The translations under genes and the position numbers were made by a program. Below the pieces are notes generated by a model, which did not search any database, had not been told where the DNA came from, and worked only from the letters and a program-made list of their open reading frames with translations. A stretch of DNA of 50,934 nt from NCBI GenBank assembly GCA_050011835.1, contig JBEKII010000005.1, forward strand, positions 1-50,934, read 5' to 3'. Of the stretch, positions 13,305 to 36,976 are shown piece by piece (position 1 is the first letter of the stretch; the number at the start of each line of letters is the position of its first letter). Origin of the DNA: Minisyncoccia bacterium. GTDB lineage: Bacteria; Patescibacteriota; Minisyncoccia; Phycocordibacterales; Phycocordibacteraceae.

Positions 13305-13670
13305 CTATTTATTTATTATCTTAGACAGTATGTGCTTTTGTTCTCCGATGTAGACCTTGTATTCGGCATCCCGCGGGACCTTCAGAATGAGCTTGTTTCC
13401 TTCTATACTGATATTGCCTATCCAATCGTTGCCATAGTAACTTCCAAATTGTCCTATTCCCTCTAGAATAATTTTTCGCCCATCGTAATCGAAGGCTGCA
13501 GACTTGCAGGTCAATTTAATACCTGGATCTTGCCCTCGGAAATAACCTGTGCATCTTCGAACACCTACTATTAGCTCTCCCGTGGGATCAGGCAGGTTTG
13601 GAGCGCCACATCCGACAATCATCATCGCGACAACAAAAAACAAACAGGACTGCAAACATCTTTTCTTCAT
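13305..13670 (-). CDS. Hypothetical lipoprotein
   Basis: Signal peptide with lipobox (MMIVGC), SD GGAAGG upstream, 121 aa, no family recognised. Confidence 0.6.
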   Translation of the reverse strand: MKKRCLQSCLFFVVAMMIVGCGAPNLPDPTGELIVGVRRCTGYFRGQDPGIKLTCKSAAFDYDGRKIILEGIGQFGSYYGNDWIGNISIEGNKLILKVPRDAEYKVYIGEQKHILSKIINK

Positions 13671-13749
13671 TTTTCTACCTTCCTTTCTTGAATGTTTTTC
13701 AAATACTTTCTACGGCTAGAATACACGACTTCGTCTTTTTGTCAAGGCC

Positions 13750-14611
13750 TTGCGCGCGGGTATCCAGACCCAGTTGGCACAGCACCCGTATCATGGAAAC
13801 CATGTACACGCTCAAACAAATACCCTCGGAGGCGCAGATCCGCCGGTTTCTGCGGCGCACGCTCTTCGGCAAAAACGTCTTCTGTCCGCTCTGCCGCTGT
13901 CGAACGGTCCTGCGCTATGAACAACGGTATCGGTGTATGAGATGCCGTCGCCGGTTCTCGCTCCTTTCGCACACCTGGCTCTCGAATCTGAAGCTTCCTC
14001 TGCAAACATGGTGGGCGCTCCTGTGGTGTTGGACGATACGAGAACCGGTTGTGCAAGCCATGGAACTGACTCATCTGCCTGAGAGGACGGTGCGTCGCTG
14101 GTATGCCACTTTTCGAGAGCATTTGCCTCAGGAAGAGCACGTCTTGGAGCGTATTGTGCAGATGGACGAGGCGTACTTCAAGAATGCCGCACTCATGATG
14201 GCGAAGCAGAAAGGGACGAGAAAGCTGGCGGTATGCGGTCATGTACGATCGCTTCCCGGACAAGGCCGACGCCGTTCAGTTCCTGTTCGAGAAGGTGAAG
14301 CCGGGGAGCGAACTGTGGACGGACGGCAGTACACTATACCAAGGCATCGGCCAACGGTGGCCGGTCTCGCACAGCCGGGATATTCATTCAAAATTCGAGT
14401 TCGAGCACACCTCGGAGATCGAAGGAGTGTTTGCCGTATACCGCACGTTCGTGCGGAGGATGTATCATCACCACTGGAGCGAGAACCTCGAACACTATGT
14501 GAGGGAATTCTGCTTCAGATTTTCCTCGCCGGAATTGTTCGGAAATCCGCGCAGTTACTTATTAAAATCGTTAACGCTTGTGCCAACTCGTTAAGGATAC
14601 CTTTGCGCGCC
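13750..14611 (+). mobile_element. IS1595-family insertion sequence (boundaries tentative)
   Basis: Imperfect inverted repeat TTGCGCGCGGGTATCC (13750-13765) / GGATACCTTTGCGCGCC (14595-14611) brackets the transposase reading frames. No target duplication was identified. Confidence 0.4.
13793..14594 (+). pseudogene. IS1595/ISXO2-like DDE transposase, frameshifted
   Basis: N-terminal IS1595 zinc ribbon (CPLCRCRTVLRYEQRYRCMRCRRRF) and VQMDEAYF lie in the frame of 13793. The catalytic C-terminal half (WTDGSTLYQ...HTSEIEG) is in the +1 frame (ORF 14241..14594). The switch is near 14225-14245. Confidence 0.65.
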
Positions 14612-14667
14612 CTCGTGGACGCTGTTGGAACTAGAATACGAGAGCACGAGGGGCATATTTTTATTCC
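14605..14667. repeat. 63-bp direct repeat, copy 2
   Basis: 58/63 identical to 13155..13217, exactly 1450 bp downstream of copy 1. It starts inside the putative right IS end. Confidence 0.85.
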
Positions 14668-14684
14668 GAAATTGTATTAAAAAC

Positions 14685-26207: not shown

Positions 26208-28361
26208 TTATTGCTTAAGCCCACCCCACTCAACAAGTGTGAACCCAGTCCGATCAATGTGATTCAGAATTTGGGGTTGCGGCTGAATGACTGGCATAGT
26301 CGAAAGTGGCGACCAATCGAGAAATACGCGGATGACTGTATCTGGCTTCGGTGATATTTGCATCGGGATGAACTGATTCATTTGTTCGGTCTGGAAGAAC
26401 GAGATGCGGTAGAAAGGAGCATTTTTGGTAAGGAGTTCTGGAACCCAGTAGGCCATCATGTCGCTTTTCTCTTTATCGGTGAGACCGATCTGCGTAAGCT
26501 TTTGGTTCAAGAAATCAGAGATATTTTCTTGTGGCACTACCCATCCGCCGGTCGGTATCGGATATTGTCCGCTTGCTTGTCCCGCCCAATATAAGTACGG
26601 GTAGTCATTTTGTTTACACGCGGCTTGAGCATATTCAGAACCAAAAATTGTTGAACCAATCGCGTCGCAATTCGTGAGATTCAGTTGGAGGTCAGTTAAT
26701 TCGCCGTCAGGATGCGCCATTACATCCCATCCGTTTGCATAGGTCGGGATATCGGTTGTGAGTCGCATTGGGGTTGTGAACCTGACTGTCACCTCGGTTG
26801 GCTTTGGCGGATAGAGATAGATGACGGGCTTGCCTATTCCTCCGGGTCCACTTTCGACATCTCTCCGAATGAATGCGACGAAGTCACCGGCTGGATGACG
26901 CCAAAAGAACATTGGGTGAGATTGAATAAAATCCGGGGTCGAGCTTCCTTGGTATGTAATATCATACAGACAATCATAGACAGAAGGATATTTATTAGGG
27001 TCCAGTTCGTAGATAGGATCGCCTTTGACGGTAGTGCCGGTAACAATGAGCCCCGCCTGAAACTGAGCCGCGGAAATGTTGTTATAACAATAGTACCAGT
27101 CATAGCCATCTCCTCCCCAATCGTAGTTCGTTGCAGTATAGTTTCCATAGGTTATTGAAAGCGGTGTCGACGTCCCAGTGCTCCATGTAAGTTGTGGGAC
27201 ATTGTTTGGATCGAGAAAGTCCGGTTGCGGAAATATATTAACAGCTTTGCCGAACGAAAAAACAAGATAATAGGCATTTGACCCCGCAACGACTTGAACA
27301 ATTTGAGCAACAATGCCCTGCATATTATTATTTTTTACGATTTGCCACCCTTCCTGATCTATCGCAACAGGTGTTGTGGAAGTAGGCAGGGTATCGGACA
27401 AATCGTAAGCCGCATCGCCATCAGTTGTACCGCCCCCGTCACCGAAAACAAACACCCCCTTATTATCAGTTGCTGTTACCGTATCAATCAGTGCCAGATC
27501 CATCGGGAAAACATAGGTGTTTGGAATGGGATATGTACCATCCACCCTGCTCGTCGTGATCTCCATATCCGTTGTGGTCGCGATTTTCCCGTCGACACCC
27601 CTTGAGATGACTTGGTAATGGTAGGTGGTGCTCGCAGTAAGGCCGGTAAGTGTGATTAAATGGTCTGTGACGTAAGCAGGGTCTGAAGTCGACGAACCAT
27701 ATGCGGTTGAGAGACCAAAATTCACCAATGAGGTGGCGGCTTCATTAGTAGTCCAGATGATCGTGGCTTTACTGGCCGATATGGTTCTATAGGCAAGGTT
27801 ACGTTTGATGGAAGCGTTAAAACCAAGCGCAGTTTGGAATCCTTGAACGATCGCGCTGGTGCCCTCCGTGTGGAAATAGAAGCTATCCCACGCGAGCGGG
27901 GTTCCAAGAGTATCGGAAACGAAGTAAGCGTATATAAAATTGTCTTCATGCGCTCCAGTTAAATTGAGCGTACCAAGGGCAACTGTTTTACCATCAAATT
28001 CTCCGCCGTGAATTGTTCCTATATTGAAGATGTTGATGATCCCTTGGTAACTAGGAAACGGAATTGTTCTTATAAGAGTAGGATTTGCGTTCCAGGTAAT
28101 TGACGCCGGTCCTTGCTGGTTTTTGGATTGTCCCTGTGTCGTCGACGTTGATTGAGGAGTCGAGCTCACAACCGTGGATTGATTTTCTTGATTATTCGAG
28201 GTTTGAGACGAAGAAGACGTTTGTTGAGTTATTGAATTTGTGAGCTCAGGTTGATTTGGTAGTTTTGTACGTTCATATACATATGCTCCACCACCAATTA
28301 ACAAGACGGCTAAAAGGATTAGGAGCAGGGACGTAATAAATCCTCTTTGCGAGTTTTTCAT
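26208..28361 (-). CDS. Large membrane-anchored surface protein with FN3-like domain
   Basis: 717 aa with an N-terminal TM anchor and an S/T/Q-rich linker. An FN3-like segment (ATIIWTTNEAATSLVNFGLSTAYG...TYHYQV) is followed by a conserved-looking C-terminal domain starting KPVIYLYPP. Confidence 0.7.
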   Translation of the reverse strand: MKNSQRGFITSLLLILLAVLLIGGGAYVYERTKLPNQPELTNSITQQTSSSSQTSNNQENQSTVVSSTPQSTSTTQGQSKNQQGPASITWNANPTLIRTIPFPSYQGIINIFNIGTIHGGEFDGKTVALGTLNLTGAHEDNFIYAYFVSDTLGTPLAWDSFYFHTEGTSAIVQGFQTALGFNASIKRNLAYRTISASKATIIWTTNEAATSLVNFGLSTAYGSSTSDPAYVTDHLITLTGLTASTTYHYQVISRGVDGKIATTTDMEITTSRVDGTYPIPNTYVFPMDLALIDTVTATDNKGVFVFGDGGGTTDGDAAYDLSDTLPTSTTPVAIDQEGWQIVKNNNMQGIVAQIVQVVAGSNAYYLVFSFGKAVNIFPQPDFLDPNNVPQLTWSTGTSTPLSITYGNYTATNYDWGGDGYDWYYCYNNISAAQFQAGLIVTGTTVKGDPIYELDPNKYPSVYDCLYDITYQGSSTPDFIQSHPMFFWRHPAGDFVAFIRRDVESGPGGIGKPVIYLYPPKPTEVTVRFTTPMRLTTDIPTYANGWDVMAHPDGELTDLQLNLTNCDAIGSTIFGSEYAQAACKQNDYPYLYWAGQASGQYPIPTGGWVVPQENISDFLNQKLTQIGLTDKEKSDMMAYWVPELLTKNAPFYRISFFQTEQMNQFIPMQISPKPDTVIRVFLDWSPLSTMPVIQPQPQILNHIDRTGFTLVEWGGLKQ

Positions 28362-28730: not shown

Positions 28731-29546
28731 ATGGCATCTCCTGAATCTCCCAAGAAACCACGAGTGGAAATCAAAGAATCAGGCAATGTGGCTTCGGAAC
28801 CGAGGGAGCCAAAGGTGGATCTCTCCGAGGAAGCTTATGCGGGAACTACAGAGGAAACGATGGCTTGTTTAAGCTCTGTGAACCAGGGATTTTTCGGCAA
28901 AATGTCCGAAGCCGGAAAAAAGATAGCGAACCAGGCGTATGAGGGCTTGTATAAAATACCAGTAGTGAACAGAGTCGTTGGCAAAATGGAAATTGCTTAC
29001 AACCAATTCTGGGTGGACCGGCACGAAAAGAAAGCCGTTAAATTTAAAGGCAAAATGGACGTACTTGATATACAAATGGGAGTGCTGGACCAGTCAAAAA
29101 AAGAAATTGGGTCCGTCATCACTAATTTAAAATTAGAACATACCCCAGGAGCTGACTCGTTGCAGCTGAGATTGAAAGAAATGGACCAAAAGAAAATAAA
29201 ATTGCTGAATAAAAAAGACAAAATCCAATCGAAGTTTGAATCCAGAGAAAATAAAGCAAAACTTTATACTAATGAGCGCGATAAGATTGCAGACAGGTTC
29301 ATCGGTCGTTATAACGAGAAACTTGCACCGATGGAAAAAGAATTGGACCGCCTGCAAACCTGTAAGGACGAGGTGGACTTGTCGGTCGCCGTTATGGAAG
29401 CGCGACACCACCAATTCTTGGCAAAATTAGAAGGCACAGAAAGACAGAAAACAGAAATCGAAGAGGCCCTTCGGAGAGCGGGAATGTCGGAAGGGAAAAT
29501 CAGAAAATCCGTAGATATAAAGACACTGGAGGAAGTCTTGGCCTAG
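28731..29546 (+). CDS. Coiled-coil protein, upstream part (ends at in-frame TAG)
   Basis: 271-aa K/E-rich heptad-like sequence with no TM and no family recognised. Confidence 0.6.
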   Translation: MASPESPKKPRVEIKESGNVASEPREPKVDLSEEAYAGTTEETMACLSSVNQGFFGKMSEAGKKIANQAYEGLYKIPVVNRVVGKMEIAYNQFWVDRHEKKAVKFKGKMDVLDIQMGVLDQSKKEIGSVITNLKLEHTPGADSLQLRLKEMDQKKIKLLNKKDKIQSKFESRENKAKLYTNERDKIADRFIGRYNEKLAPMEKELDRLQTCKDEVDLSVAVMEARHHQFLAKLEGTERQKTEIEEALRRAGMSEGKIRKSVDIKTLEEVLA

Positions 29547-30101
29547 GGGCGGGAAAAGATACAGAAAGAAAAGGAATTTATCGCGCAACAAAAGGCCAGA
29601 ATAAACAAGAAAATTGCAAAGGCCGATAAAAAAGCTAATCCCTATAGAGACAAACGGGAAAAATTCGTGCGGGTGAAAGAGCGGCGACCGATTGAGATGG
29701 ACGTGGAAACAAGGACACGGAGCGAAGAATTCAGAGGTGAAGAAGAGGCGGAAGCGCACCCAAGAGGAGAACGGCCAGAAGCTGTGGAAATAAACGAGGA
29801 AACTCCAGAGGAAACGGGAGCGGAAGCAGTTGCGGAGAAAGGCGAAAAACAACCTGAGATCGGGGCTCTTGTCGTTGGATGGAATGCCTATCTCAAGAAA
29901 GAGAAAATCTTAGACAGATCTATAGACCAGAAGGATTTCTTGAGAGCAACAAGATTATCCGAGCATTTCGTACTAGACAGCAGGGATTTTAAAAATATCC
30001 TTGAAAAATATTACAAATTCAAAAAATCTCCCGTAAAGGACGTGGGCGCGCTGGAGAAAGACATCAACAAATTCTTCAAAGAAATAAAGAGTAACTCGTA
30101 A
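29547..30101 (+). CDS. Coiled-coil protein, downstream part (same frame, no convincing own start)
   Basis: The frame stays open from the TAG at 29544-29546 to 30101. The first possible start is a weak GTG at 29667 with no SD. Composition continues that of the upstream part. Confidence 0.4.
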   Translation, partial: GREKIQKEKEFIAQQKARINKKIAKADKKANPYRDKREKFVRVKERRPIEMDVETRTRSEEFRGEEEAEAHPRGERPEAVEINEETPEETGAEAVAEKGEKQPEIGALVVGWNAYLKKEKILDRSIDQKDFLRATRLSEHFVLDSRDFKNILEKYYKFKKSPVKDVGALEKDINKFFKEIKSNS

Positions 30102-30105
30102 AACT

Positions 30106-30396
30106 ATGGACACAGACAAAAACATGACAAACGACCAGAATATTCAGGGTATAAGTAACGACCTCAATACTCTATTAAATGAGACGAGAGAAATTATCCG
30201 GGAGGAAGAAAAAGAAAATAAAGAAACGAGAGAACATATGAATGCCATTGAGAAGGAAGTCGATGAAACGATAGCTGCTATTGATATAGCATGCACCGAA
30301 CTAGACCAAATAGAAAAAGAGGCCGGAGATGAGTTAGATGCGCTTATGCTGGCGGAGGCGGAAGATTTGGTCGTAGAAGATTCGGCGGATGAATGA
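30106..30396 (+). CDS. Small acidic coiled-coil protein
   Basis: 96 aa, strongly acidic (E/D-rich). It starts 4 nt after the previous stop. Confidence 0.55.
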   Translation: MDTDKNMTNDQNIQGISNDLNTLLNETREIIREEEKENKETREHMNAIEKEVDETIAAIDIACTELDQIEKEAGDELDALMLAEAEDLVVEDSADE

Positions 30397-30432: not shown

Positions 30433-30717
30433 CTACTTTGAAGCAGGCACGTAGTTCCCTTGGACATAGCTTCCGAGGCTAAACGTACCGAGTGCAATAT
30501 TAATGATGCCGTACGCGCCGAAAATGACAACGAGACCGATGACACCCCAGAAAATTGCCTTACGGCCTTCCTCGCGCTTCTGCGAGTCCCCCGCGTGCAG
30601 AATAAACTCAAACATTCCCCAAACGAAGATAACGAATGCACCCGCGGAGAGAAGCAAAATTATCGGATTGATAATCTGCGTAATGACTTTCGCGGTGAAT
30701 GAATAGAGAACGGACAT
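30433..30717 (-). CDS. VirB2/TrbC-like two-helix pilin-family protein (paralog 6)
   Basis: 94 aa: helix, charged loop (GDSQKREEGRKA), then helix. It abuts the stop of the upstream paralog with no intergenic gap. Confidence 0.65.
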   Translation of the reverse strand: MSVLYSFTAKVITQIINPIILLLSAGAFVIFVWGMFEFILHAGDSQKREEGRKAIFWGVIGLVVIFGAYGIINIALGTFSLGSYVQGNYVPASK

Positions 30718-31095
30718 TTAGCCGCCGACTTGGACGCCCGCCGAAGGTACGCCGCCAGAAGGGCCGCTACTGTTGCCGAAGCCAATCGTGCCGGTAAGAA
30801 TGTTCACGAGACCCCAGACCGATACCATGATGAAAAATCCGACGAGGCCCCAGAGCATAAGGGTCTTGCCCTTTCCCTTCTCTTCTTCGGAGTTAGCGCC
30901 CAAGATGAAGACCTTGAACACGCCGTAGAGGAAGACGATGAACGCTATCGCGAAGAGGACTGGAACGATGATATTGTTGATGGTGTTGATAATGAGCGAA
31001 CCGACATCCGAAATATTGTTGACTGCAGCGAGCGACACGAGCGGCAGAGCGAGTACGGCGGAAGCGATGGACGTAAAGACAAGGGCTTTTTTCAT
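30718..31095 (-). CDS. VirB2/TrbC-like two-helix pilin-family protein (paralog 5)
   Basis: 125 aa with a signal peptide, core IVPVLFAIAFIVFLYG...GANSEEEKGKGK...VSVWGLVNIL and a G/S-rich tail. Confidence 0.65.
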   Translation of the reverse strand: MKKALVFTSIASAVLALPLVSLAAVNNISDVGSLIINTINNIIVPVLFAIAFIVFLYGVFKVFILGANSEEEKGKGKTLMLWGLVGFFIMVSVWGLVNILTGTIGFGNSSGPSGGVPSAGVQVGG

Positions 31096-31176
31096 AGGAT
31101 AAGTAATCTAATAACGAGATAATTATAGCTTTTCTATTACAGTGGTCAATGCGTTTTTGGAAGGTTTGTGGATAGT

Positions 31177-32577
31177 TTAATTTCCCTGCGTGGGAGCGCC
31201 GGAAGAGCACGACTTATCGGTAGAAAGATAAGAGGATCCATCCTCAAAGTTTGTACAAGTATAAAGACACTGGTCGCCTTGGTTTGGATCGTAAACGCTT
31301 GCATTCGGATTGTAATTTTGTGCGGCTGAATCCGTGCATCCGTGCACTGCGCCAGTGCTGGGGGTAGAAGCGTTAGTACTAAGACAAGTGCCGCTTGGGC
31401 ATGTGAAGCCTGCGAGACAATCGGCGGCAGTAATGCAAGCGCTTCCCGCGCCTCCATTACCACCGAGTTGGTTGACGCCCTGAATGCATCCGGTCGTGGA
31501 ATTATCATCGGGGAAACATCCCGTGGGACAAACTCCGCTACTATCAGGGGTACAGGTACCGCCAGTGTTGGTGCCACCGCTATTTGGAATGCACTTAAGA
31601 TAAGTTTGCGAATTACTATCCATATCGCAAGTAAGATTTTGCATGCATTGACTAGAGTCGTTACAAGCATCACCATTTCCTGCGGAATTAGTCTTGGGCG
31701 GTTCGCACTTGCCCACGGTCGGACTGCCAGCGGTTACGTCGCAGGTGAGTCCTTGCATACAAACACTCGGACTTCCGCCACAAACGCCGTCTTGTGCCAC
31801 CGACCCAGCGGGAATGCTTTTACAGAAACCGAGAGAACATGTGGAACCAGGGGCGCAAACACTAGTAATGATTGTACCGCATGTAGTACCACCGCTACTC
31901 GTGTATGTAGCGAGGTATTGTTTACACACAGGACTTGAACTACCGAAATTGGGACTATTTATGCACGATTGATATGAGTTATAGGCGCTGTTCGCCTGTT
32001 GAGATGTTGACGCTGGAATGCTGCTACTCCCAGCGCCACTGCCGGTACCGTAATAAGCCTGATAATAAGCTTGATTGGCTTGCAGGCATTGAGGACTTGA
32101 TTGACTTGCTGCACACGCACTTTGTTGCGCATTATATAAGGTCCATAGTTGTGACTGCGCTGAAGAGCCACCGCTATTGGAAGGCGCGGGAATAACAACG
32201 TAGTTGCTGCCAATATTTGGATTGTATGTGCTACCGCCCGAGAGATATGTTGGGGAAGTATTAGTGTTACCGCCGCTGCCGCCGATCGTTGGAAACGGAG
32301 GAGAGTTCGCGGCGCCAAGATTGAGCGTGCCCATAAAAATCTGAATAATGGCCCAGAGCGAAAAGAGGACAACAAAGCCGGCGATGCCATAGATGATTAA
32401 TTCTCTTCCTTTTGTGTGTGCTTCGGGATCAGCAGCACCCTGAATGAAATATTTATAAATACCCCAAAGGAAGACAATGAAAGCGATGGAAATTAATACC
32501 GGGACGAGGATGCCATTGATGATGCCGGTGATGCTGCTCGCGTACCCCTGAATATAAATTGCGTTGATACCGTTCAT
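31177..32577 (-). CDS. Pilin-family core fused to a 380-aa S/G/T- and Cys-rich extension (paralog 4)
   Basis: Residues 1-85 carry the family core (LVPVLISIAFIVFLWG...GAADPEAHTKGRE...FSLWAIIQI). The rest is low-complexity with 28 Cys in repeated 4-Cys modules. Confidence 0.7.
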   Translation of the reverse strand: MNGINAIYIQGYASSITGIINGILVPVLISIAFIVFLWGIYKYFIQGAADPEAHTKGRELIIYGIAGFVVLFSLWAIIQIFMGTLNLGAANSPPFPTIGGSGGNTNTSPTYLSGGSTYNPNIGSNYVVIPAPSNSGGSSAQSQLWTLYNAQQSACAASQSSPQCLQANQAYYQAYYGTGSGAGSSSIPASTSQQANSAYNSYQSCINSPNFGSSSPVCKQYLATYTSSGGTTCGTIITSVCAPGSTCSLGFCKSIPAGSVAQDGVCGGSPSVCMQGLTCDVTAGSPTVGKCEPPKTNSAGNGDACNDSSQCMQNLTCDMDSNSQTYLKCIPNSGGTNTGGTCTPDSSGVCPTGCFPDDNSTTGCIQGVNQLGGNGGAGSACITAADCLAGFTCPSGTCLSTNASTPSTGAVHGCTDSAAQNYNPNASVYDPNQGDQCLYTCTNFEDGSSYLSTDKSCSSGAPTQGN

Positions 32578-32604
32578 ATCTTTAAGTGTGACTAGATATT
32601 TTAA

Positions 32605-33003
32605 TTAATACACCGGCGACGTCGGTAGGGGTGGCGCGAAGTAGCCCGTGAGACCGAAAGTATTCGCAATAACATTTACAATCCCCCAAAGGGAGACCAT
32701 AACCACGAACGCGATAATGCCCCAGAGAATGAGTTTATGGCCTTTTTTGACTTCCTCTGGGTCACCGCTGGAGAAAATGTAGGCACTTGCAATACCGTAG
32801 AGGAATACAATAAAAGAAATGGCGAAGAGTACCGGTACCAAGACCGAATTGATAATCAAGAGGACCATCTGGCCGAGCCAGCAGAAATAGCCGCAACTGA
32901 CTCCGCCGATAGAAACAGCAAAAAAGGCACCCGCGAATGCGAGCGCGGGCGCGAGAAGCGCCGCGAGTGGCAGAACGATGAGGACAATTGGTTTCAATTT
33001 CAT
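32605..33003 (-). CDS. VirB2/TrbC-like two-helix pilin-family protein (paralog 3)
   Basis: ORF 32605..33114 trimmed to MKLKPIVLIV at 33003 so that it does not overlap the upstream gene. It has a signal peptide plus core LVPVLFAISFIVFLYG...SGDPEEVKKGHK...VSLWGIVNVI. Confidence 0.65.
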   Translation of the reverse strand: MKLKPIVLIVLPLAALLAPALAFAGAFFAVSIGGVSCGYFCWLGQMVLLIINSVLVPVLFAISFIVFLYGIASAYIFSSGDPEEVKKGHKLILWGIIAFVVMVSLWGIVNVIANTFGLTGYFAPPLPTSPVY

Positions 33004-33023
33004 ATGTTTAGAAGTATGACATG

Positions 33024-33293
33024 TTATGAGGGAAACGTAATGCCGAGCGTGGATAACAATAGATTCACCAATCCCCAGATTGAAAAAAATATAACCAGCC
33101 CAACAATGCCCCAAAGTACAAACCCCCGTCCTTCTTTGCGTTTTTCGTCATTTCCGCTGTTGAGGAAAAAATAATTCACGACGCTCCAGACGAAAAAAAG
33201 GAATGCGAGAGCGCCGATAAAGGGAATGACGATAATATTGAGGACGCCGATGATGCCTGTTGAGCCATTGCCGATGAATTGCGCGAAGGTCAT
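33024..33293 (-). CDS. VirB2/TrbC-like two-helix pilin-family protein (paralog 2)
   Basis: ORF 33024..33482 trimmed to MTFAQFIGNG at 33293, 1 nt after the upstream stop. Core: IVIPFIGALAFLFFVW...NSGNDEKRKEGRG...FSIWGLVNLL. Confidence 0.65.
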   Translation of the reverse strand: MTFAQFIGNGSTGIIGVLNIIVIPFIGALAFLFFVWSVVNYFFLNSGNDEKRKEGRGFVLWGIVGLVIFFSIWGLVNLLLSTLGITFPS

Positions 33294-33294
33294 A

Positions 33295-34620
33295 TTATTC
33301 GCCGGTGTCGCTGCCGTTGTTTGGTATGACACAAGCACCGGTCGCATCACATACAAAGGGAGAGACACAGGTGCATGTGCTATTGTTACTAGTGCTATTA
33401 TTCTCTGTTGTGCCGCCACTAGCGCTGTTATTACTAGAGATACAGCAAACGAGGTCACTAAGATCGCAGGGTGACGGTTCATCAGCTACCACACCTCCGT
33501 AGCATGCTTGTTGGCACGTTCCTGAAGTACCGCTATTGCCTACGCAACCAGTACCGATAAGGGAAGTACAGCAAGTGAGACTGGAGCCACATCCTGAACT
33601 GCCTTCATCTGTTTCAGTATCGCTGCATGTTGCTTTGCATGTCCCTGATTCGCCACTGTCATAACCAGTGCAAGTAGTACCTGTCATTGAAGTGCAGCAG
33701 TCCATGCCGCTGCTACACGTTGACTGGCCATCTTCTATTTCGGTATCGCCACATCCTGCCTTGCACGTCCCTGAATCACCGCTGTCCCCTGTGCAGGTAG
33801 TGTTACCAAAGGTCGCCTTAAAGGTTGCCAGGTTTTGATTGTAGAGATTGGTGGCCGATATGCATTGGGAGCTTTGAGCATTTTGACTGCACGCGCTATT
33901 CATGGCCGCGAGTTGTTGATTTAATAATGTGGCAGCGGCGGATTGGGTCAAAGGTACCGCTGATTGCCCGACTCCCGGAAAGAGAGTCGCCCCGCCGGTA
34001 GTTCCAGTGCTTGGAGTAACGGATGAGCTAGAGCTCGTGGCGCCACCAGAGAGCGCCTGTACCGTCGCTTGAATGCCCAGAGATATCGCTTGCGCTCCGA
34101 GAAGAATAAGGGCGCCGACGATGGTCCAGAGAAGCGCATTATGTGCCTTGGTTAAACTTTCCGGCTTGCCCTGCGCCATAACATACATGAAGCCGACGTA
34201 TACGAGCATCACAATAACAACGATGGAGCCAATGTATACGACAAACTGCAGAACTTGGGCAAGAAGCGTACTAAGATTGGTCCCCGCGCCGAGCGGATTG
34301 ATGAGTGTGACGTTTTGGTTTGAGGAGGAATTTGCGGCTGGCGATAGATTTTGATTTACTGCAGGTGATGGATTTGCTGGAAAACATTGACCGGTACCCC
34401 CTCCGGCATCGCTCCAAAATTGTTCAGCCGCCACACATTGAGGTTGGGTCAACTGTTCAATATTTGAAACAGCACATTGGCCAGTGTTGCCTTCACCCCA
34501 AAGGCCGGCCTTTATGCATTGAGATTCAGTTATTGCTGTCGCAGATGCTTTGCCCGCCGGCAGGCAAACAACAGACGCAAACGCAAAGAATATGAAAAGG
34601 GCAGGAATGAATCGGCGCAT
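33295..34620 (-). CDS. Secreted Cys-rich protein with central TrbC/VirB2-like helical hairpin (paralog 1)
   Basis: 441 aa with a signal peptide and an N-terminal duplicated QC...TGQC segment. The hairpin is at residues 115-190 (loop AQGKPESLTKAHN), followed by three 6-Cys modules. Confidence 0.7.
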   Translation of the reverse strand: MRRFIPALFIFFAFASVVCLPAGKASATAITESQCIKAGLWGEGNTGQCAVSNIEQLTQPQCVAAEQFWSDAGGGTGQCFPANPSPAVNQNLSPAANSSSNQNVTLINPLGAGTNLSTLLAQVLQFVVYIGSIVVIVMLVYVGFMYVMAQGKPESLTKAHNALLWTIVGALILLGAQAISLGIQATVQALSGGATSSSSSVTPSTGTTGGATLFPGVGQSAVPLTQSAAATLLNQQLAAMNSACSQNAQSSQCISATNLYNQNLATFKATFGNTTCTGDSGDSGTCKAGCGDTEIEDGQSTCSSGMDCCTSMTGTTCTGYDSGESGTCKATCSDTETDEGSSGCGSSLTCCTSLIGTGCVGNSGTSGTCQQACYGGVVADEPSPCDLSDLVCCISSNNSASGGTTENNSTSNNSTCTCVSPFVCDATGACVIPNNGSDTGE

Positions 34621-34621
34621 A

Positions 34622-35929
34622 TTATTGCTGGAGAAGAGCGCTTAAGGATTGCCCAGCGGAAACGAGCGCGGTTTCTAATGTGGAGCGGCCACTTATCACA
34701 TTTCCAATCATACCCGAAAACACGGAGTCAGTATCGGCAGGCGCTGGGGACAACCATCCTTTGGCGTAAAGTGCTCCGGCGTAAGCAGCCGCAGCGGTCG
34801 GATCAGTGGGCACAGTCGCGAGTTCGTTTAAGACCGCAGGCGCGAGGCTGGTCGCGGAGACGGCGGCTTCTTGTTCGGCCGCATTAGTGAGAAGCGCCGC
34901 GGCCTGATAGGCGCCGGCGGTATTCTTCGCTCCGACAGGTATCATAAGCGCATAAACGAGACCGTAGGTGCTCTTCACGGTGGCGGTCGCTGGTTGTGGC
35001 AGAGGCGCGACGCCAAAATCAAGATTTGGATTTGCTGTCGCGAGATACCGCGCTTCAGAGGCGTAGCCGAGATAGAGTGCGAGGTCGCCCGCGAGAAACG
35101 CTTGCTCCGAGTCCGGCAGCAAGGCGTTCCAGGTGTATGAGATTTTTGAAGGGTCGGCGAATTGAGTGTAGAAGCCGATAACTTCCTGGCCGGGCGATGT
35201 GCCGTTGCTGAAGTTCTCGCCGAGGTCAGCAGAAAGAAGCCCCGTGGAGGAAGAATAGGAAGAAATGGGAACGCCGGTCTGGATAAAAAGCGCAGAAAGA
35301 ATTCCGCGCGCATCGTGCACGTTGTCATAGGTGCCGAATGCGATGAGTCCGCGAGTAATCTGTCGCGCAGATGTCAGAATCGCCACATTCGGTACAAGTC
35401 CGGCCAATGCTTCCCATGTAGCTGGCGGCTTCGCGATGCCGTCGGAGGAAAGGATCGTGCGGTTTGAAAATAATACGAGCGGATCAACAAGGAACGGTAT
35501 GCCGTAGTAACCGTTGGCGGCCGCGAAAAGTCCCCCTTCTCCGACGAACGTGCTTGAAAAAGTGGATGCGGGGAGTGTCGCGGATGGTATCGGCGTGATA
35601 AATTTCGCGAGCGAAAGAAGCTCTTCCTGCGAAGCAAGAACGAGATTTGGTGCGGCGCCGGTCGCTATCGCGGCGGAGAGATCATTCGGAAGCGTCGCGG
35701 GATCTTTTTGTACATACGAAACATCTTTGAGGGACGTGTCGGCCTTTGCGATGGCAGTGAGTGCGGTATCCATATCTGCCTTAGGGAGCGTACCCCAAAT
35801 CACAACCGTACCGACCGCATTCTTGCCGCTGTTATTGCTATTGGTGTGCGTCGCGAAAACAAATAAGCCGACAAGCGCGGCAACGCCGAACACGCCGAAC
35901 AAGATGCCTTGAAAGAGAGAAATTTTCAT
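34622..35929 (-). CDS. Membrane-anchored extracellular solute-binding-like protein (SBP family 1-like)
   Basis: N-terminal TM anchor. YYGIPFLVDPLVLFSNRTIL...PPATWEAL resembles the sugar-type SBP signature region. No ABC permease or ATPase is adjacent. Confidence 0.55.
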   Translation of the reverse strand: MKISLFQGILFGVFGVAALVGLFVFATHTNSNNSGKNAVGTVVIWGTLPKADMDTALTAIAKADTSLKDVSYVQKDPATLPNDLSAAIATGAAPNLVLASQEELLSLAKFITPIPSATLPASTFSSTFVGEGGLFAAANGYYGIPFLVDPLVLFSNRTILSSDGIAKPPATWEALAGLVPNVAILTSARQITRGLIAFGTYDNVHDARGILSALFIQTGVPISSYSSSTGLLSADLGENFSNGTSPGQEVIGFYTQFADPSKISYTWNALLPDSEQAFLAGDLALYLGYASEARYLATANPNLDFGVAPLPQPATATVKSTYGLVYALMIPVGAKNTAGAYQAAALLTNAAEQEAAVSATSLAPAVLNELATVPTDPTAAAAYAGALYAKGWLSPAPADTDSVFSGMIGNVISGRSTLETALVSAGQSLSALLQQ

Positions 35930-35932
35930 ATG

Positions 35933-36469
35933 TCAGGGTGCAGTAAAAATAATCCCGTAATGGTGCGGCCCCGCACGAAACGATTTCACTTTATGAAAAC
36001 CGCCATTGATAAAAAAAGCTTCGGCGTCGTGTTCGGTTACCACCTTCCCTGGAAGAGGACCCATGCCGCCATAACTGCCCGCCCAATCAACGAGCATAAG
36101 CTTGCCACCCGATTTCAGAACGCGCCTTATCTCTCCTAGAAGACCGTAACGATTCTCAATTTGGAAGAGCGTATTGGCGAGGATAATAGCATCAAGCGAT
36201 GCATCGCGCAGATGCGAGCCGCCTAACTTCTCAATGTCGCCCCAAATCGTATCAATAATGCTGTGATGCGTCAGGTGCATGTTGAGCTTCAAGTGCTTGA
36301 GAATGTTTTCTTGCACATCAATCGCGTACACTTTCCCGCTCTGCCCCACGATAGCCGACGCCGCGCGCGCATAATGGCCCGTGCCGGCACCGAAGTCGCC
36401 GACTTTCATGCCTTCGCGCAATCCGAGTTGCAGTACATTCTCTCGCGGCTCGCTGAACGTTGACGCCAT
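35933..36469 (-). CDS. Class I SAM-dependent methyltransferase
   Basis: Motif I VGDFGAGTGHYA, post-I YAIDV and motif II-like AIILANTL. The start was trimmed to MASTFSEP at 36469. Confidence 0.8.
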   Translation of the reverse strand: MASTFSEPRENVLQLGLREGMKVGDFGAGTGHYARAASAIVGQSGKVYAIDVQENILKHLKLNMHLTHHSIIDTIWGDIEKLGGSHLRDASLDAIILANTLFQIENRYGLLGEIRRVLKSGGKLMLVDWAGSYGGMGPLPGKVVTEHDAEAFFINGGFHKVKSFRAGPHHYGIIFTAP

Positions 36470-36532
36470 ACCTATAAAATAGCACGCGCCCCCCTCCGGA
36501 GGACGCGCAATCAACAGTGGTACACTGAAAAA

Positions 36533-36976
36533 ATGCTTGTCATTCTTGAGCGAGCTACCGCCAAAGACGTTGATACATTTATAAACATCGAACGGAGTGT
36601 CGATGGTTCGTCTATCTATTCAGCGATGACAAATCGAGATGAAACGCTCGCGGAAATCGAGAAAAATTTCGTATATCTCATACGCGAAAGCGGCCACATT
36701 GTTGGGAGTGTTATGTATGAAATGAAGACGCCAGATCACGCCCACATCAGCGGCCTCGCTATTTATCCTGATTTCCAAAATTGCGGCATCGGAAAAGCCG
36801 CGATGGTAAAAATACTTGAGGAACTGAAAAACGTACCGATTATTGACCTCGTCACACACCCCAATAATCAATACGCGATAAAATTATACAAATCGCTCGG
36901 CTTCACTCTCGGTAAACGCGTTGAAAATTATTTCGGCGACGGCGAACCGCGTGTCGTAATAATACTCAATCGCTAA
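36533..36976 (+). CDS. GNAT-family N-acetyltransferase
   Basis: 147 aa with acetyl-CoA motif QNCGIGKAAM and C-terminal YKSLGF. Confidence 0.8.
   Translation: MLVILERATAKDVDTFINIERSVDGSSIYSAMTNRDETLAEIEKNFVYLIRESGHIVGSVMYEMKTPDHAHISGLAIYPDFQNCGIGKAAMVKILEELKNVPIIDLVTHPNNQYAIKLYKSLGFTLGKRVENYFGDGEPRVVIILNR

Follow-up and report, generated by a model that had tools for sequence, protein, structure and literature searches.

The 50,934-nt contig JBEKII010000005.1 (assembly GCA_050011835.1) of a Minisyncoccia bacterium, a Joint Genome Institute (JGI) metagenome contig that was analysed in its entirety (50.9 kb) and is referred to below as the window, carries a compact block of eight genes on its minus strand. 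These encode, in order, a methyltransferase, a solute-binding-type protein and six members of the T4SS (type IV secretion system) pilin family, which are numbered here pilin 1 to pilin 6 in the direction of transcription. An initial annotation made from this DNA alone had described the block, and when its eight open reading frames (ORFs) were listed anew and the distances between them recomputed, the same coordinates and the same gaps (3, 1, 1, 20, 27, 81 and 0 nt) were obtained. The features of the locus are collected in Table 1.

Table 1. Genes and putative regulatory elements of the eight-gene block, in the direction of transcription (positions are those of the window).
Feature	Position	Strand	Description
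Upstream element	36470..36520	-	TGTTGATT; G+C-rich hairpin 36509-36483; TGCTATTTTATA 8 nt before the methyltransferase ATG
Class I S-adenosylmethionine (SAM)-dependent methyltransferase	35933..36469	-	178 aa; first gene of the block; Methyltransf_11, E 4e-15
Membrane-anchored solute-binding-type protein	34622..35929	-	435 aa; SBP_bac_8, E 9e-19; SBP_bac_1, E 5.5e-14
Pilin 1	33295..34620	-	441 aa; PF18895 34.6 bits, residues 114-179; 4-Cys N-terminal part ~34306-34539, divergent core ~34036-34305, C-terminal tail 33298-34035
Pilin 2	33024..33293	-	89 aa; bare hairpin without leader, two hydrophobic helices; PF18895 41.7 bits
Pilin 3	32605..33003	-	132 aa; leader-like start, then hairpin; PF18895 31.5 bits
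Pilin 4	31177..32577	-	466 aa, 28 Cys; PF18895 30.9 bits; hairpin core ~32281-32577, Gly/Ser-rich linker, tail 31180-32280
Internal promoter (predicted)	31122..31175	-	81-nt gap between pilin 4 and pilin 5; CTATCCACA 31175-31167; -35 TTGACC 31149-31144, 16-nt spacer, -10 TATAAT 31127-31122
Pilin 5	30718..31095	-	125 aa; signal peptide and hairpin; PF18895 38.1 bits
Pilin 6	30433..30717	-	94 aa; bare hairpin, 0-nt gap to pilin 5; PF18895 44.6 bits, best of six

All six pilins scored above the Pfam gathering score of the T4SS_pilin family PF18895 (26.6 bits), with 30.9-44.6 bits, E-values of 3e-7 to 2e-11 and alignments that ran from model positions 3-16 through 67-71 of 71; the membership in this family that had been suggested for them is thus borne out. 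A PF18895-core profile made from the six cores matched exactly six ORFs within the window. Pairwise identity was 30-42% among pilins 2-6 and about 20% between the 441-aa pilin 1 and the others, in agreement with the earlier description of a core that is shared by five proteins and divergent in the longest but one. In a hydropathy scan of all six, every core was found to consist of two hydrophobic helices with a short K/R/E-rich loop between them, and the core hairpins of pilins 5 and 4 were modelled by AlphaFold with predicted local distance difference test (pLDDT) values of 76-89. The model of pilin 5 comprises a leader helix and the hairpin, with helices at residues 28-65 and 70-104. Pilins 1, 3 and 5 have signal-peptide-like leaders of the AxA type, while the other three begin directly at the first helix. 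The six also matched the NCBIfam model NF045849 at 15.7-37.6 bits, in each case below its curated cut-off of 40; for five of the six the E-value was 1e-7 to 1e-9 with nearly the full model aligned, and the pilins are thus relatives of that family but not members of it. The name given by NCBI to the orthologs of these proteins is "pilin".

The same gene order was found throughout a large group of related genomes. The first five loci that were compared, which represent three distinct genomes, showed one arrangement throughout: gyrA, then the methyltransferase and the binding protein, and after them six small genes, the majority with a precomputed PF18895 match. A scan of species-representative genomes with an alignment of the binding protein gave 80 loci, almost all from separate species-level genomes. 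A methyltransferase homolog was present upstream of the binding protein and on the same strand in 80 of 83 distinct related loci, and exactly six pilin genes followed in 63 of the 71 loci with complete downstream DNA. Of the remaining eight, two had seven pilins, five had five and one had three; in at least three of the five-pilin loci, two neighbouring ORFs had been merged by the overlap filter. The seventh pilin gene, in L013 (13277-13804) and L070 (4390-4776), sits between positions 4 and 5 and is a rare recent duplication or insertion in an otherwise fixed array. The junction between the methyltransferase and the binding protein measured -4 to +12 nt in 48 of 52 loci, with a 4-nt overlap in 29 of the 52; for the binding protein and pilin 1 the range was -4 to +6 nt, again in 48 of 52. 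Apart from gyrA, whose distance from the block varies from about 0.05 to 4 kb, the genes upstream of the methyltransferase were not conserved, nor were those downstream of pilin 6. Since the flanking genes vary while the junctions within the block stay tight, the conserved unit is exactly the eight genes that had been singled out in the window.

The relationships among the six pilins were examined in an alignment to the core profile that comprised 378 sequences of 63 genomes. Mean core identity was 55-77% within a position (pilin 5, 76.7%, the highest of the six; pilin 6, 70.6%; pilin 2, 64.5%) and 15-43% between positions, and the nearest neighbour of a pilin was a pilin of the same position in 377 of the 378 cases. 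Compared with their orthologs, the window's GyrA had a mean identity of 82.8%, its methyltransferase 76.5%, its binding protein 69% and its pilin cores 49-74%. To judge from these comparisons, the six pilins are six old orthologous groups whose number, order and identity are under purifying selection. The initial annotation had spoken of a module amplified six-fold; because each position forms its own orthologous group in a fixed order, that description does not hold, and the array is no recent amplification.

The 81-nt interval between pilins 4 and 5 is the only sizeable gap in the operon, and it contains a putative sigma-70-type promoter that agrees with the consensus at 11 of 12 positions. 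Promoters and terminators were scanned for across the locus, and only this site, which was conserved across species, was retained. At least 10 of 12 consensus positions were matched by a TTGACC-16-TA(C/T)AAT element in the pilin 4/5 gap of 56 of 63 related loci, whereas control windows inside the binding-protein gene reached at most 9 of 12. The sequence CTATCCACA, just after the stop codon of pilin 4, occurs once in the 51-kb window. The anchored consensus retains TatCCaCA upstream of the promoter and TTAtcCa downstream of it. A TATCCACA motif thus precedes the promoter and a related TTATCCA comes after it, at the same position in L004-L088, and the two may form an operator pair. Because the conserved promoter element precedes pilin 5, pilins 5 and 6 would constitute a separate, and probably stronger, transcription unit. 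A second element precedes the methyltransferase. Its sequence TGTTGATT was found in 54 of 60 loci, and its hairpin, flagged as terminator-like (12 pairs, eight of them G-C), varies in sequence between species but retains its pairing and is followed by TGnTATTTTAT. This element could act as a terminator of transcription that comes from upstream, could be an extended -10 promoter from which a nearly leaderless mRNA starts, or could do both.

Pilins 1 and 4 differ from the others in their long cysteine-rich extensions, and almost all of their cysteines lie outside the core. Pilin 1 has a signal peptide, three hydrophobic segments and 29 cysteines, 24 of which are in a tail of about 245 aa with three repeats of about 42 aa. 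The tail of pilin 4 is 367 aa long with 28 cysteines and is made up of helical hairpins with cysteine pairs and of small disulfide-rich modules; the AlphaFold model has helices at residues 6-45 and 51-84, disorder at 100-137, helical hairpins at 139-227 and, thereafter, small beta modules with pLDDT up to 93. Foldseek gave weak matches of this tail to prokineticin (MIT1), Dickkopf and knottin-toxin folds (best E 0.038). Nothing significant was found by Pfam in the Cys-rich tails of the window pilins, while tails of pilin-4 orthologs gave significant matches to EB, DUF7107 and Toxin_12, and weaker ones to Dickkopf_N. Only 32 homologs of the 466-aa pilin 4 were found in a large protein database; their alignment shows a modular order of PxFPTIG, Gly/Ser-rich linker, helical Cys-pair hairpin and 4-6-Cys modules, the small modules being variable in number. 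In the sample of 63 genomes, a tail of at least 60 aa was present at position 1 in two and at position 4 in 15, and 14 of the tails at position 4 had at least four cysteines; the longest tail at position 3 had 46 aa, and none was seen at positions 2, 5 and 6. The window has the longest tail of the sample at both position 1 and position 4. Pilin 3, which has three hydrophobic segments, carries cysteines at residues 37 and 41, a pair that recurs among the sampled orthologs.

An outward orientation of the two extensions had been proposed, and it is supported by several features of the sequences. The cysteine counts of both tails are even, and in some pilin-4 orthologs a cleavable leader ends exactly before the residue at which the window pilin 4 starts, so that the N-terminus of the pilin is probably outside; hydropathy and the positive-inside rule, on which the predicted topology is based, likewise place the tails outside. 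Behind their second helix, pilins 2-6 carry a short proline motif. In pilin 4 it is an invariant PxFPTIG at the end of the core (~32281-32310), where it marks the point of tail attachment, and in the other pilins it takes the forms LPTSP, VPSAG, VPASK and FPS; it may be a processing or recognition site. A C-terminal motif, GCTDxxAxNY(N/D)PxAxxD(D/G)SCxY, was found in the window (31180-31330) and in P0126, P0133, P0135, P0136 and L047. Motifs of this GCTDxxAxNY...DGSC type close the Cys-rich tails of several species, occur in tandem in L047 and were matched to no family.

The two genes that precede the pilins have no obvious place in a pilus system. The methyltransferase has no hydrophobic segment; its nearest solved structure is 3dh0, an uncharacterised SAM methyltransferase (E 1.6e-17), and its NCBIfam matches were to ArsM/UbiE-type models, far below threshold. 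It is, as far as its sequence indicates, soluble and generic. The solute-binding-type protein has a single N-terminal hydrophobic anchor and no cysteine, and it scored well above the gathering scores of SBP_bac_8 (68.8 bits against 27) and SBP_bac_1 (53.3 against 26); its profile gave weak matches to the sugar-binding 4r9f (3.5e-9) and to MalE-type proteins. No permease or ATPase partner for it was found in the block, in the window or in the blocks of relatives, the ATP-binding cassette (ABC) genes of the window being of ABC-2, FtsEX and exporter types and more than 16 kb away. More than 800 homologs of this protein were found, of which the best 120 showed 69-83% identity and were named Kaiserbacteria, Paceibacterota or Minisyncoccota. 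Pilin genes follow it in every locus with enough downstream DNA. Because their junctions are fixed and overlapping, the sequences argue for a functional link of the methyltransferase and the binding protein to the pilins. No coupling of a methyltransferase or solute-binding protein to pilins was found in the papers searched; the main text of PMC12102498 contains neither "solute-binding" nor "Kaiserbacteria", and mentions "methyltransferase" once, for KsgA near virB4.

As had been noted before, secretion machinery is lacking from the window: Pfam detected no VirB4 or other T4SS ATPase, VirB6, VirD4 or other coupling protein, or relaxase among 30 other ORFs scanned. The initial annotation had also allowed for a conventional T4SS immediately beyond these limits. 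No VirB4-like ORF was found within 10 kb of the operon in the 80 related loci when large ORFs were tested for a Walker A motif, which was absent from all 30 large ORFs of those loci that lack a homolog in the window. VirB4 is listed in six of seven operon-bearing genomes (L013, L037, L044, L038, L084 and L010, with L026 listed without it; PMC12102498 Table S1). For this reason the idea of a self-contained module, put forward earlier, is unlikely to hold, and the locus is probably an unlinked pilin operon of a known system. In Paceibacteria virB4 is usually near dnaA/dnaN, and in Patescibacteria at large pilins were near virB4 in 1135 of 1948 assemblies and away from it in about 40% (PMC12102498). 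Full-text literature searches for Kaiserbacteria together with pilin gave, as the sole co-mention, an unrelated sponge-microbiome study.

Pilin genes of this kind have been described elsewhere in the phylum. A survey by Quinonero-Coronel et al. (2025, PMC12102498) found 441 arrays of 2-11 pilin genes in 383 Patescibacteria assemblies, defined by at least two pilins that are adjacent or one gene apart, and the six contiguous genes of the window form an array in this sense. The published arrays are of the same Pfam family and phylum, consist of tandem divergent paralogs (about 25% mean identity) and are often away from virB4, and Kaiserbacteria genomes are within that dataset. The paper, however, highlights Microgenomatia and Saccharimonadia and reads the arrays as variation for host adaptation, whereas here six orthologous groups make up a fixed operon, which contains an internal promoter and includes two conserved partners that are not pilins. 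Another point of comparison is Southlakia epibionticum ML1, in which a predicted pilin series belongs to a Gram-positive-like T4SS without relaxase and coupling protein, and was found to be essential (Wang et al. 2023, PMC10633639). This essentiality is the only experimental evidence for such pilins, and the earlier statement that the family has no experimentally defined function is to that extent outdated, while the role of the T4SS in Patescibacteria has been called "completely unknown" (PMC11665869). In that saccharimonadial organism the pilins are inside the T4SS cluster; the block described here is from Paceibacteria, has no machinery within 10 kb in 80 genomes and comes with a methyltransferase and a binding protein as constant partners.

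Five of the six pilins match nearly the whole 80-residue NF045849 model, which represents the Mbov_0395/MMCAP2_0565 protein of mollicute integrative and conjugative elements (ICEs); the relatedness fits the monoderm (MPF-FATA) ancestry published for the Patescibacteria T4SS (PMC12102498). The mollicute protein is encoded by a single gene on a mobile element, in contrast to the chromosomal six-gene set, and a search of the literature on this family returned nothing relevant. Type IV pili and type II secretion systems offer an analogy of logic only, in that an abundant subunit is accompanied by conserved, non-interchangeable minor ones, some of them adhesive; fold and assembly machine are unrelated. 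Type IV pilins are defined by a class III signal peptide (G/FTLIE-type N-terminus), and none was present among the six pilin N-termini.

These observations are best explained if the block encodes a set of major and minor pilins, some with adhesin-like tails, for the T4SS pilus of an ultrasmall patescibacterium of the Kaiserbacteria type (class Paceibacteria), a reading that we consider somewhat more probable than improbable. Each pilin would be inserted in the membrane as a two-helix hairpin, with the charged loop in the cytoplasm and both ends outside. Pilin 5, perhaps together with pilin 6, would be the abundant major subunit, because these two genes have a conserved and presumably strong promoter of their own; among the six, moreover, conservation is highest in pilin 5. 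Pilins 1-4 would then be minor subunits of lower abundance, and the species-variable, disulfide-rich, knottin-like modules on the outside ends of pilins 1 and 4 would serve as host-binding adhesins. Assembly, to go by the literature on related systems, would depend on a VirB4-type machine whose genes lie in another part of the chromosome. Fixed, translationally coupled partners of the pilins would be the binding protein and the methyltransferase, of which the former might be a dock or a sensor of a host-surface glycan and the latter might modify the pilins or a lipid.

Several points weigh against this interpretation. We know of no pilus seen in any Paceibacteria, and it was not possible to demonstrate that the core is homologous to conjugative pilins of characterised structure. 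With E-values up to 1 allowed, none of the six matched the TrbC/VirB2 family PF04956 in Pfam; when the PDB was searched with a profile of the core, no pilin was returned, the best match (E 0.12) being an unrelated protein; and hhalign of the core against an alignment of eight annotated plasmid VirB2/TrbC proteins gave a probability of 1.3%, with the same helix-loop-helix order. A Foldseek search with the pilin-5 model (mean pLDDT 66) gave nothing at E<1, only generic helical hairpins, a two-helix fold being one that carries too little signal. Of the likeness to TrbC/VirB2 pilins that had been claimed, the hairpin topology stands but a link by sequence or profile does not: the resemblance to these pilins, Agrobacterium VirB2 among them, is one of small size, leader (which three of the six have), hairpin in which the short loop is charged, and predicted topology with both ends outside. 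Also unlike VirB2, which is single, the pilins are six specialised paralogs, two with large outside domains, and have no adjacent virB1, virB3 or virB4; in all plasmid examples examined virB2 stood directly before virB3, and with one exception virB1 or another transfer gene stood before virB2. Furthermore, the topology rests on hydropathy and the positive-inside rule rather than on a dedicated predictor; the internal promoter is a motif match, and when the entire region was scanned the number of sites did not exceed that expected by chance from shuffled sequence; the presence of VirB4 in operon-bearing genomes is taken from a published table, in which one genome of seven lacks it; and nothing explains why the binding protein and a methyltransferase of 76.5% conservation should belong to a pilus system.

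On another reading, only the six pilins belong together, and the methyltransferase and binding protein have no relation to them but are merely co-transcribed because the genome is compact; they could be, for instance, a methylase of housekeeping function and a nutrient receptor of the orphan kind. In favour of this, the conservation of the methyltransferase comes close to that of GyrA (76.5% against 82.8%) and its sequence is generic, the binding protein resembles sugar-transport receptors, and we know of no pilus system that needs either of them. In almost every one of about 60 species, however, the junctions of both genes overlap or span only a few nucleotides, although both flanks vary, and no ortholog of the binding protein without pilins after it was seen in loci with enough downstream DNA; we therefore consider this explanation unlikely. 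A yet more tentative idea, which we regard as rather doubtful, is that the six pilins and the binding protein make up one surface machine for capturing or importing host carbohydrate, in the form of a hetero-oligomeric filament with the binding protein at its base or tip or of a 12-helix membrane complex; a subunit or a bound lipid would be the substrate of the methyltransferase. If true, a secretion pilin family would be part of a nutrient-acquisition device in bacteria unable to make their own building blocks. In its strict form, in which the six two-helix proteins (12 helices) and the binding protein would be a new complex for uptake or sensing of host sugar that is independent of any T4SS and the "pilins" would not be filament subunits, the proposal seems to us improbable. 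It would account for a binding protein that, across about 80 species, is never parted from the six genes, with no ABC permease or ATPase in the block, for six distinct, conserved and non-redundant subunits of the kind that suggests a defined hetero-oligomer, and for the absence of a VirB4-like ORF within 10 kb in any locus, and it is helped by the unproven homology to classical pilins. The separate conserved promoter for genes 5 and 6 argues against equal stoichiometry, however, and Cys-rich tails that are long and variable are more in keeping with adhesins than with the subunits of a transporter. The PF18895 family, moreover, adjoins virB4 in many Patescibacteria and lies inside the essential T4SS cluster of S. 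epibionticum, and the pilins are related to a transfer protein of mollicute ICEs. To our knowledge, there is no transporter built of six hairpin subunits.

Within a T4SS, the paralogs might alternatively be interchangeable versions of one major pilin, kept for surface variation or for matching of host strains, as has been proposed for Patescibacteria arrays and for the VirB2 paralogs of Bartonella and Anaplasma. This is the reading suggested for such arrays (PMC12102498), and it agrees with the low identity between paralogs (15-43%) and with tail content that differs between species. Against it stand the conserved orthologous groups, with 55-77% identity within a position in 63 species, the fixed order and number, and the same-position neighbours of 377 of 378 pilins; positions 2, 5 and 6, besides, vary neither in length nor in tails. 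Given this position-wise orthology, the fixed number and the constancy of three positions, specialised subunits are indicated rather than diversifying copies, and a cassette of variants seems improbable. Least probable of all, and by our estimate very improbable, is that the block is part of an ordinary conjugative element with its transfer genes immediately beyond the window. Because the window comprises an entire contig, the flanks beyond it are unread (contigs sharing one edge gene of the window extend the sequence by less than 2 kb, and no record of the other edge gene was found), and an IS1595-type transposase zinc ribbon is encoded at 13598-14680. The block lies, however, amid the core genes gyrA, IF-2, enolase, ftsA and ftsZ, in a neighbourhood common to many species; no large ORF with a Walker A motif was found within 10 kb in 80 genomes; and relaxases are rare in Patescibacteria (PMC12102498).

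On the preferred reading, that of a major-plus-minor pilin set, the locus overturns nothing, since tandem arrays of T4SS pilins in Patescibacteria are already known (published in 2025, PMC12102498). What is new is descriptive: an eight-gene unit of methyltransferase, binding protein and six specialised pilins that is clade-wide, in about 80 related species, with an internal promoter, swappable disulfide-rich tails at two positions and two unexplained partners. It provides a clean clade-wide case for a T4SS, a system that is essential where tested, and makes testable the presence of six specialised subunits, a promoter of their own for two of them and swappable modules, candidates for host recognition, on two others. 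The specificity of the binding protein and the target of methylation offer two experimental handles on the function of the pilus.

Thirty other ORFs across the window were scanned with Pfam and belong to housekeeping and transporter families, apart from the one transposase zinc ribbon and four ORFs without a match. Among them are the genes for a P-type ATPase, CTP synthase, FtsEX, RF2, PPDK, enolase, IF-2, GyrA, S1, Pth, FtsA, FtsZ and thioredoxin reductase. The ORF with the IS1595-type domain is on the plus strand and encodes 360 aa; it is the sole mobile-element signature in the window. A GNAT acetyltransferase gene (36533-36976, plus strand) is inserted divergently between gyrA and the methyltransferase, and because it was present in only six related loci it was rejected as part of the conserved block. 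Three acidic ORFs downstream of the block (28731-30396) were likewise rejected as members of the system, since they recur in only two related loci. For a 717-aa ORF at 26208-28361 on the minus strand, which may encode a surface protein, the sole annotation is a weak match, below threshold, to the purple acid phosphatase N-terminal domain. Between this ORF and the block, on the plus strand at 28731-30101, are two adjacent acidic, coiled-coil-like ORFs of 271 and 144 aa without a Pfam match, with homologs in only two related loci; both align to a single ORF of 501 aa in L064, so that the window may hold a split or frameshifted version of this gene.

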